Position numbers and translations under genes: made by a program. A DNA stretch of 64,000 bases. It comes from Eledone cirrhosa (taxonomy: Eukaryota). The notes beneath the pieces are model-generated. The model worked only from the letters and a program-made list of their open reading frames with translations. It was not told the origin of the DNA and did not search any database. This document shows, piece after piece, positions 36,001 to 39,000 of the stretch; positions within the stretch are counted from its first letter, which is position 1, and every line of letters begins with the position of its first letter. The stretch is from NCBI GenBank assembly GCA_964016885.1, contig OZ024747.1:93062001-93126000 (forward strand). The letters are read 5' to 3'.

Positions 36001-39000
36001 ATTGGAATCCTTCATGTCTAATCACCTCTTACCCTTTAGCATTCACATTACTCTATATTTACTATTGTATTTTTACAGAAAAAGCTTTATCTCACATAAT
36101 ATTGAAACTACGAAATTTTGATATTATCTCTTTTGAGAGCAATACCTTAATGCCGGTATGAGCCACCGATTACAAATGGTTTGAACAGAAGTAGGTGAGG
36201 GAATTCTGGCCGGATATGGCTGGTTTAAATGCTAACGGGCACATCAACTCCTAGGCATCTCCAAAAATATATATAAGTAAACTAATAATTCAGTAAACAG
36301 AATATAAAATAAATGGGTAATAATGAGTAATTATATATAAATCAGAAACCTGTGTATGCAACTTGTATTTTATTGTATTATTTTCCAAAAATTCAGTTGA
36401 TCTTCTCAGTAGTCTCATCAACCATTTTAGGAACCTCTAATCTAAGTCAAAGACTACTGAGTAGTCACTGAAATGTTTTGACATACTCTCGTTTTGTGAA
36501 AGTGAAAAAGCTTAACCCTTTAGCATTTAAACTGGCTGTATCTAGCTAGAATTCTTTCACTTCTTTCTGTTCAAACCGGCCATAACTGGTTGCCCATACT
36601 TATGTTAAGGTATTGTTCTCAAAATAAGTAATATCAAAATCTCATAGATTTTATATTATGTGAGATGAAGTGTTTACCGTGAAAATACAATAGTATATAT
36701 AGAGTAATGTAAATGCTAAAGGGTTAAACAAGTAAACTTATATGAAGAAACCAAGCCATGTTTTACAGTGTTTTTCACTTTTTCGCAGCAAAAAATGACT
36801 TGTGCTAATATGAACACATTGGTGTGCATATATATATATATATAATCATTTATTTTGCCTTGACAAAGACACTGTTTATAAAGAAGCAGGATATATATGT
36901 GTGTGTGAGTCCCGGGTTCAATCGGGGGTAACCACAGTAAGGTACTCAATACATTAGTTGAGTGTATACAACAAAATTTAATATAGAAATGGCTTGGCTT
37001 CTTCGCGACTAGAATTAAGCCATTTCTATATAAATATATATATATATATGTTTATTATTAGTACAGATTAAAGTTTAAGCAAAGAATTTCTGCTTTCACC
37101 CTATACGGGATCTTCTGAAACTGAGAAAAATTAATCTGTTGGCACAGAAATAAATATTTCAAAAAATGTTACAACCAAATATTGCCTTTAGAAAACAGGA
37201 AGACATAATGGCGGTATGTGAAGACATTCTCTTGAGATGGGCGAAACATATGCAAGGATAATTACATCATTATATGGCGTGAGAACAATAATTTCTTGGT
37301 ATGATAACTTTAATCTGTACCAATAATAAATATCTGCTCTATGGATTTATATATACTTGTGTGTGTATATATATATATATATATATATATATATATATAT
37401 ATATATAGCAATTATTGTGTTGGCTCAGAAAGGAAATATACTCAACTTCAATGAGATTTGAACTCAGAAAAATTAAATTCTATAAAGCTTATAATTAGTC
37501 AGTCATAAATCATTAGGAAACGAACTAAATACAAGGTTCTGTCTAATGAATCCAAGTGACTGTCAAACTCTACCAAAGTGTGCAGTTATAGTTATATAAA
37601 TGAAATCATATTTAATAGAACAGATATGTGGGCTTCAGGAAGTATGGGAGACAACTCTGGATGAAATTCACTTCTTGTTGATAATCTTATGAACGCAGTA
37701 ATAAATCAAATACTAAGTCAATATACTAAATAGTACAGTTGCTGATATATACTAAATATTATTGATAGGTGAATGTTTTGTGCATACATATTTAATGATT
37801 AAAACTTTAAATTGCCAAAGTATGTTCAGAAAAGCAGTAATAGAAAAAAAATATTTAAACCTTTAGCATTTACATTACTCTATATATACTATTGTATTTT
37901 CATAGTAAAGGCTTTATCTCGCATAATATTGAATTTAATGTTATGTTTTTTTTATTCATTTTAGTGCCATTCTTCATTGTGTGGGCCCTTATAAACTCTG
38001 TTGCCTGGGGCTATGGAACCACTCAAGCTTTACCTTGGACTACAGTTGTTATGTTAATATGCTTATGGATGTTTGGTAATATTTTTTGTCATTCCACATT
38101 TAACAGTTAGGGAAAAAAAGATATTGATAAAACAATTAATGAATCATCATCATCACCACCACCCACACTGTAAAGTGGTCATGTAGGAGTCGTGACAAAA
38201 AGCACCCAGCCTACACTGTAAAGTGGTTGTGTAGGTGTCACAACAAAAAGCACCCAGTCTACACTGTATAGTGATTGTGTAGGTGTCACAACAAAAAGCA
38301 CCCAGTACACATTGTAAATGTTGTTGGCATCCAGCCGTAGAAACCAAGCCAGATACAGTTCTATATGAGCAAGACAATATTACCTGACCCGACTTTCCTC
38401 AAACAGGACAACCCGTCTAACCCATGCTAGCATGGAAAGTAGACATTAAACAATGATGATGATGTGCCTAAATTAAAAATCATTGTGTTTTGTGATTGTT
38501 CTCATACTTCATGTATTATGTATGTGTGTAAATAAGGCTTTCTGATTTAGACACAAAGCCAATAATTTGGGGTGAGGGAAAAGTTGATTAAATCAACCCC
38601 AGTACATTACTGGTACTTTATTTTATCGACCACATGATGAAAAGCAAAACTAACCTCGGTGAGATTTGAACTTTGAATGTAAAGGGATGTAACTATATAC
38701 TGCAAAGCATTGTCCAACACTCTACCATTACTGTAATAAGTTAATATTTTATTTATTTAACCCATTAGCATTTACATTACTCTATATATAATATTGAATT
38801 TTGGGGGTTTACCTCACATAATATTGAATCTACAAGATCTTGATGTTATTTATTTTGAGAACAATATCTTAATGTCAGTATGAGCGCCCAGTTATGGCCA
38901 GTTTGAACAGAAAGAGGAGAGAATACGGCCAGTTTAAATGCTAATTGGTTAAACTATTTTCACACCACACTGTGGTTTTGAAACACCTACTTTCTCTTAA

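Follow-up and report, generated by a model that had tools for sequence, protein, structure and literature searches.

A hammerhead-like motif with A at core position 4 is fixed in a Hydra-type Penelope-like retrotransposon family of Eledone cirrhosa

The core of the hammerhead ribozyme reads CUGANGA, with U at position 4. In the window, by which we mean the whole 64,000-nucleotide stretch of Eledone cirrhosa DNA that was analysed (contig OZ024747.1, positions 93,062,001 to 93,126,000), two places on the minus strand can be drawn as a type I hammerhead with the core CAGAAGA. This raises the question whether the change of U4 to A (U4A) is decay in individual copies or the regular state of a family, and whether a motif with such a core would still act as a ribozyme. 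The features of the two copies are collected in Table 1.

Table 1. Features of the two motif copies in the window (position 1 is the first letter of the window)
Feature	Position	Strand	Description or basis
Copy 1, hammerhead fold proper, 51 nt	37072..37122	-	helix I, CAGAAGA core, helix II with loop GUAUA, helix III, CUU triplet
Copy 2, hammerhead fold proper, 51 nt	47354..47404	-	loop 2 GUUAA; sequence, core numbering
A4 of copy 1 (canonical core: U)	37116	-	core numbering; fixed in family
A4 of copy 2	47398	-	core numbering
Predicted cleavage site, copy 1, CUU/A	37077/37076	-	core numbering
Predicted cleavage site, copy 2	47359/47358	-	core numbering
Copy 1, bulge and 5′ strand of 9-bp helix I extension	37123..37139	-	pairing with 37063-37071
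Copy 2, bulge and 5′ strand of helix I extension	47405..47420	-	pairing with 47345-47353
Copy 1, 5′-truncated 3′-end (pLTR) fragment, older lineage	37048..37303	-	86% to L005 over 256 nt
Copy 2, 5′-truncated 3′-end (pLTR) fragment, young lineage	47246..47620	-	91-92% to full unit in L091
Short inverted arm of same element, head-to-head with copy 1	37306..37379	+	inverted structure typical of Penelope-like insertions
Putative transcription start, copy 1 (A2.5, initiator-like TCAGTT)	37122	-	inferred from other family copies
Putative transcription start, copy 2	47404	-	inferred

When the sequence was read, all letters and pairings described in the first-pass annotation were found at their minus-strand places in both copies. 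These comprise helix I (AGUUU/AAACU), the CAGAAGA core, helix II of CCC/GGG with U10.1.U11.1, the GAAA, helix III (AGCAG/UUGCU), the CUU triplet, a pyrimidine-rich bulge of 8 nt in copy 1 and 7 nt in copy 2, and a 9-bp extension of helix I with one A-U/G-U change. The predicted cut positions were likewise numbered correctly. The annotation also held that both copies fold into the three-way junction. All pairs of three helices around the core, with helix I open (type I), can indeed be drawn in both, but the junction is not the predicted minimum-energy fold (-13.1 versus -18.4 kcal/mol in copy 1, -13.0 versus -15.1 kcal/mol in copy 2). The ensemble probability of all hammerhead pairs together is 0.004 for copy 1 and 0.008 for copy 2, mainly because the inner helix I is weak, and the folding z values are -2.6 and -0.6. 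A canonical-core family of the same genome likewise does not have the hammerhead as its minimum-energy fold in the same model, so that the low fold probability of the CAGA motif is a caution and not a refutation. The 10.1-11.1 pair that closes helix II is U.U and not a canonical pairing; U10.1.U11.1 is reported as a tolerated natural hammerhead variant (PMC3088659; papers are cited here for those parts that were available).

In 36980-37300, around copy 1, none of the Rfam hammerhead models matched at E≤10, and a scan of the whole window, which covers copy 2, gave no hammerhead among 150 listed of 325 matches. The mir-297-type matches in the window were rejected as (TA)n artefacts. Rfam microRNA matches arise here from simple and tandem tracts, such as an 11-kb interrupted (TA)n-type tract at 16571-27521, a 2.4-kb (ACA)n tract at 1-2390 and a 48-bp tandem array of 14 copies (96%) at 34676-35356. 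The window also holds a MITE-like repeat of about 217 bp with perfect 18-bp terminal inverted repeats (36512-36727), with copies near 4328, 8603, 14213, 36031, 38748, 40544 and 41579. Overall, the repeats of the window seem octopus-like.

The two copies are not separate sightings: both belong to one retrotransposon family with more than 23,000 copies. An exact CAGA pattern of 26-30 letters matched the 3.0-Gb genome 23,082 times and its reversed control 0 times; for copy 1, 40 relatives were scored of 4,111 candidates. Both window copies are 3′-end fragments without an ORF: copy 1 terminates in (TA)n at an end site 29 nt past the cut (+29), and copy 2 is flanked by (TA)n tracts and terminates at the +111 end site. 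In 11 stretches around neighbouring matches, partial-tandem and inverted units flank a long ORF. The tandem unit measures 3.26 kb (locus L091), and open frames in the element stretches span 645-713 codons. In locus L423 a single frame encodes 709 aa, in which an RT is followed by a C-terminal GIY-YIG-like domain, as read from the motifs RWR, DKT, YRDD of the RT, CNCRNRADC (CxCx5C linker), CDLC (CxxC) and CKH (CxH). The Hydra clade is defined by an RWK motif, DKT, a CxCx5C linker, and CxxC and CxH around a conserved E and N (PMC8557442).

Insertion into (TA)n, partial-tandem or inverted pLTRs and a tail are all present in the family. The suggested link to Penelope-like elements was thus borne out by ORF motifs, unit structure and (TA)n targets, and judged by its protein motifs the element is a Hydra-type Penelope-like retrotransposon. 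Its unit of 3.26 kb exceeds the usual length of less than 3 kb of the Hydra clade, and its core is CAGA instead of the canonical one. Relatives of about 700 aa numbered 567, and the RT tree took in sequences from the same genome, from metagenomes and from databases. By table count, 42 of 71 scored protein matches sit in open frames of 712-714 codons; with so many intact frames, the family was mobile recently. Two partial ORFs of the element gave no match in Pfam, a PDB sequence search with the partial ORFs found nothing, and no relative was present in the viral contigs searched. A non-LTR retrozyme was ruled out as the host, since the motif flanks a 709-aa ORF and not a short non-coding tandem monomer. 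In many lineage-1 copies (L003, L005, L007, L013, L014, L019, L023 and L029), a tRNA-like SINE occupies one and the same position upstream of the motif, apparently within the lineage-1 3′ UTR; this SINE has many copies in the window too.

The claim that U4A is a family-level state rather than decay was upheld by the genome-wide counts. With helix I intact, 13,593 exact matches carry A4 and 118 another base, an A4 share of 99.1%. Among the first 100 listed of these 118 the bases were G39/T36/C25, a spectrum that looks like background mutation. Position 4 is A in 121 of 121 aligned copies. Where a 5′ hammerhead was found beside a long ORF, the core read CAGAAGA in 15 of 15 cases (30 loci; none detected in 14, one not oriented). 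The genome-wide consensus at position 4 is therefore A and not U, and a strict CUGANGA search would miss the motif, as had been predicted. In four sequencing contig sets, the motif was deeply covered in two with no listed change at position 4; the other two held 1 and 3 contigs only, too few to speak for other species.

CTGA matches in the genome numbered 757. Of the first 30 such loci listed, 23 read as palindromes about position 4 (29 or more of 40 letters matching), and the 5′ strand of helix I is intact in 2. A U4 subfamily was consequently rejected, the apparent CUGA copies being mostly junctions of two inverted arms. In L031-L060, inverted insertions often join exactly at the core mini-palindrome TTC(A/T)GAA, and such junctions create false CUGA copies that are misleading for motif counts. 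Among the first 100 listed of 2,361, 185 and 104 matches there was no sister family, whether one combining A4 with different helices or one combining U4 with the helix III of this family; these rows were family mutants, junctions, non-hammerheads or chance matches.

Relatives outside this genome have a different core. We took 77 distinct marine metagenome loci, from the best 80 of 442 related ones, and searched them with a hammerhead descriptor that permits any base at position 4. A hammerhead was found in 57 of the 77 loci (73 hits; 1 hit in shuffled sequence), and the cores were CUGA in 71 of 73 hits, CCGA in one (L360), U3-A8 in one and CAGA in none. The U3-A8 case (L361) is a Hydra-type hammerhead with a covariant core. 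Relatives are nearly all CUGA, both in the metagenomes and in the Hydra rows of File S2 of PMC8557442, and many of these rows have U10.1.U11.1. A4 is therefore a derived state, and a U.U pair is nothing unusual within the clade. In the literature searched, a set outside which most subscription papers and Repbase fell, no description of a natural U4A hammerhead came to light.

Several other hammerhead families occur in the same genome. A canonical CUGAUGA type I hammerhead with a GUC triplet, in another repeat, lies on the minus strand of the window with its core starting at 8077, and L258 and L293 contain members of this motif family. Remnants of a second family, probably Hydra-type and with a canonical core, lie at 36891-36995 (-), 58186-58248 (+) and 24377-24430 (+), one of them being nested in (TA)n just after copy 1. 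This family has 5,584 exact matches, an ORF of 44% identity beside one copy (L600), 5′ ends that seem clustered near the helix I start, and a GUU-triplet subfamily. A family with a CCGA core (U4C) has 5 copies in 3 loci (L157, L187, L301), so that this genome contains two families that depart from U4. A local tandem array with a CUAG helix III in L332-L338 (G000:C1, about 53.36 Mb) has listed units that read CAGA; in this normally CUGA family they are probably a local amplification of one mutant. Loci L001-L311 contain roughly 15 further hammerhead families, most with a short palindromic helix III (TATATA, CTAG, GTAC), and a canonical-core family in L058, L080, L081, L106 and L161 shares G15.2-C16.2 and the CUU triplet.

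To what extent is the motif constrained? The alignment comprised 123 distinct copies whose matches span 200 nt or more; 30 belong to lineage 1 and 91 to lineage 2, and 2 outliers were excluded. Lineage-1 copies were chosen for their similarity to copy 1, and many of the lineage-2 copies were picked with exact patterns, a selection that inflates column frequencies but not the comparison of majority letters. Between the lineages, the majority letter differs at none of the 39 positions in core and stems, at 3 of 12 in the loops, at 7 of 42 in the flank at -60 to -19, and at 36 of 102 further upstream (p=1.7e-6 and 0.012, the former being the Fisher p of 0/39 versus 36/102). The first 9 nt after helix I show 0 of 9 differences. 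That the flanks are far more diverged than the motif, as had been stated, thus applies beyond 60 nt upstream, applies less at -60 to -19, and does not apply to the 9 nt that follow helix I. The lineage-1 RT pieces (L004 and L017, assigned to this lineage by colinearity) are 71-77% identical to lineage 2.

In both lineages (30 and 91 copies) the majority letters include C3, G5, A6, G8, A9, G12, A13, A14, A15.1-U16.1 and H17. The sole core position that varies at subfamily level is N7, with U7 in 6 of 30 lineage-1 copies, and among the matches listed A4 is retained in 14 of 15 U7 copies with an RCUUA-type loop. U1.7 and the terminal A of loop 2 occur in all lineages. Helix III has G15.2-C16.2, whereas 72 of 73 metagenome hits read C after GAAA; pairing is kept either way. 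Within the family the aligned copies and pattern matches contain no compensatory pair, the stems being invariant. The structural selection that had been proposed therefore agrees with the conservation and with the confinement of variation to N7 and the loops, but finds no compensatory pair inside the family to back it. The pattern fits hammerhead-type constraint, with the N7 signal drawn from about three master lineages (chance about 1 in 13).

The 5′ ends of insertions point to where the element RNA would begin. A base other than T precedes helix I in 1,940 exact matches, and among the first 30 listed 27 were scored, and 28 on reading, as insertions truncated exactly where helix I begins. The number of insertion 5′ ends at this point is estimated at 1,750-1,800, about 11% of copies. 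G precedes helix I in 54 of 100 listed non-T matches, and in about 16 of 22 G cases read the extra G was not explained by the adjoining arm. An extra 5′ G can arise when the cap is copied, and initiator motifs have the form TCAGT. The pile-up of 5′ ends at helix I, mostly behind an extra G, makes it likely that capped RNA starts there, with a putative start at A2.5, the first base of helix I. A second tally used copies with an anchor 3′ of the cut (90 out of the first 100 listed of 11,970); their 5′ ends lay 27-47 nt upstream of the cut in 27 of 90, 1-26 nt upstream in 4, at the cut in 0, and 48-109 nt upstream in 12, two of which look like alignment artefacts; 45 ran on at least 110 nt upstream, and 2 of the 90 fell in none of these bins. 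No earlier report of a start-site footprint at helix I was found in the literature searched, again with most subscription papers and Repbase outside it.

Given a start at A2.5, the 9-bp extension of helix I would exist only in read-through RNA. The description of helix I as extended is therefore right for the sequence, in which the extension pairs, and would not hold for promoter-started RNA, as the extension lies upstream of the putative start. This start likely overlaps the conserved 51 nt, an overlap that could explain their conservation. The 3′ ends are discrete, at +29 in 16 of 30 and at +111 in 10 of 30 (nt past the cut), and the ORF begins about 155 nt after the predicted cut. Since insertions span the hammerhead up to the +29 and +111 ends, the template RNA must have been uncut or re-joined there.

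We also looked for ends at the predicted cleavage site. About 112 ends exactly at the cut are estimated (15 of 30 × 224), 7 of the 15 being helix-I microhomology inversions, and the control positions -3 and +3 have about 34 and 64 ends. Among genome copies there was thus no clear excess of insertion 5′ ends at the cut over these controls. In the canonical-core family with 5,584 exact matches the corresponding count is 1 of 30. Cut-site ends were dropped as a sign of cleavage, because the canonical-core family also shows almost none and the test does not discriminate.

Taken together, the motif appears to work like, or to descend from, a type I hammerhead, but departs from the U4 criterion. The reading that we prefer, with a probability of roughly one half, is that of a slow or protein-assisted hammerhead which overlaps the start or promoter of the element RNA. 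Cleavage at CUU/A would be slow, or would occur only when the element's own protein folds the RNA, and reverse transcription, begun at the two downstream sites, would pass through the uncut hammerhead. With a weak ribozyme, sufficient capped RNA would be left for translation and copying, and some cutting could still occur late or when triggered by the protein. U1.7 would have no pairing partner in cap-started RNA and could reach the final A of loop 2, and in read-through RNA it would be paired within the helix I extension; contact between U1.7 and the terminal A of loop 2 speeds cleavage when U1.7 is unpaired (PMC11875169). A canonical Penelope-like hammerhead was cleaved only with its protein, the uncut RNA being the main template (PMC11167929), metazoan Penelope-like hammerheads are weak in vitro (PMC4209133), and the U4C hammerhead of a viroid is slow in vitro and sufficient in vivo (PMC3088659); C4 is also the state of the CCGA family of this genome. 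The fold probability below 1%, the weak inner helix I and the lack of an excess of cut-site ends speak against this reading, as do the low activity of CUGA mutants (PMC9901934), the invariant stems with no compensatory pair, the small number of master lineages behind the N7 signal, and the overlap with the likely promoter, which alone could conserve the sequence.

A possible, though less probable, reading is that U4A killed cleavage long ago and that the 51 nt persist as the DNA of an initiator and downstream promoter, or as a fold to which the RT-endonuclease binds close to its two start sites. The conserved block starts at the putative RNA start and extends past helix I with 0 of 9 changes in the next 9 nt, its stems are invariant instead of covarying, and the hammerhead is present, uncut, in insertions that extend to the +29 and +111 ends. 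When mutants of another hammerhead were scanned pairwise, all single and double changes in CUGA other than the C3/G8 swap gave low activity and none was rescued (PMC9901934, in a passage that gives no U4A value). A canonical Penelope-like hammerhead was also not needed for insertion, which mutants did not impair in vitro (PMC11167929), and whole clades are without hammerheads (PMC8557442, PMC11167929). However, the changes between lineages fall on N7 and the loops, where hammerheads tolerate them, and no catalytic base has eroded over an RT divergence of 23-29%.

It is doubtful that the motif is an efficient natural A4 hammerhead, rescued by the helix III swap, the loop contact or a protein, which would sit at the mRNA cap and be switched by the freedom of U1.7. 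Slightly more doubtful still is a fully active core variant near canonical speed, in which A4 would be rescued by G15.2-C16.2, the U.U closing pair and the contact of loop 2 with U1.7. The long fixation with every other core base intact, the monomer-type helix III of 5 bp and the presence of the tertiary-contact bases would agree with such activity, but the mutant-scan data on CUGA (PMC9901934), the low predicted fold probability and the estimated 1,750-1,800 insertions whose 5′ end is the start site and which include the hammerhead uncut argue against it.

We consider it improbable that A4 is fixed because C3-A4-G5 serves as a CAG splice acceptor, so that splicing of read-through RNA would remove half of the ribozyme. 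The letters resemble a branch point, a pyrimidine tract and TTTCAG, GTAAGT donors occur in the element 3′ UTR, and the intron of Drosophila Penelope ends at helix I (PMC4209133). On the other hand, one predicted junction had 0 genomic matches, which is a weak point as a single donor was probed and elements retain introns, and the putative start lies 7 nt upstream of the CAG, so that promoter-started RNA would contain no intron. The least probable reading by a wide margin, separate origins of U4A in dead copies or an accidental fold, could appeal to the hammerhead not being the minimum-energy predicted fold, but is refuted by the genome-wide counts (A4 in 99.1% of exact matches, including copies beside long ORFs) and sits badly with an element position and a U.U pair that match published Hydra hammerheads (PMC8557442).

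A very successful family has thus long kept the whole fold despite a change expected to cripple catalysis. If the motif cleaves, the CUGA rule would gain a natural purine exception and motif searches would need widening; if it cleaves efficiently, CUGA-based searches would have missed a whole class of active hammerheads. If it does not cleave, a role as promoter or in protein binding can be enough to preserve such 'ribozymes', and a hammerhead annotated in a retroelement could not be taken for an active one. What hammerheads do in endonuclease-bearing Penelope-like elements is described as unclear (PMC8557442), and with the A4 family the reason why a ribozyme is kept in them can be tested directly. 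The 5′-end footprint at helix I indicates which RNA form is relevant for activity.

The closest known systems are compared here for the parts of the sources that were available. With the hammerheads of Hydra-clade elements (PMC8557442, File S2) the family shares the terminal-repeat position between 3′ UTR and ORF, a short helix I, a short helix II, NUU/NUA triplets and the frequent U10.1.U11.1 closing pair (CUGANGAU...UGAA). In contrast, every Hydra row of File S2 reads CUGA, and the family has CAGA and its own G15.2-C16.2 with a CUU triplet, a 5-bp helix III and a 7-nt loop. Hydra-1_oBim, the sole octopus family in File S2, has a different, canonical motif. In PAc (Poseidon, Anolis carolinensis; PMC11167929), too, the hammerhead lies a short way upstream of two internal sites of RT start, by which a 'tail' is defined; uncut RNA serves as template, and no RNA ends were seen at the cut. 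PAc differs in that it has a canonical core, was tested in vitro and belongs to another clade. The PAc ORF starts inside the ribozyme, whereas the ORF described here starts about 155 nt after the cut. Non-LTR retrozymes (PMC7229834) also place a type I hammerhead in a repeated animal element; however, they are short non-coding tandem repeats with canonical cores, and the present element is protein-coding and 3.26 kb long. Departures from CUGANGA are known from the U3-A8 hammerheads of Schistosoma Penelope-like elements (PMC4209133) and from the natural core variants of PMC3088659, which include the U4C of a viroid and U10.1.U11.1. U4A is none of the variants in the available part of PMC3088659, and in Eledone cirrhosa it is the fixed state of a recently mobile element with tens of thousands of copies.
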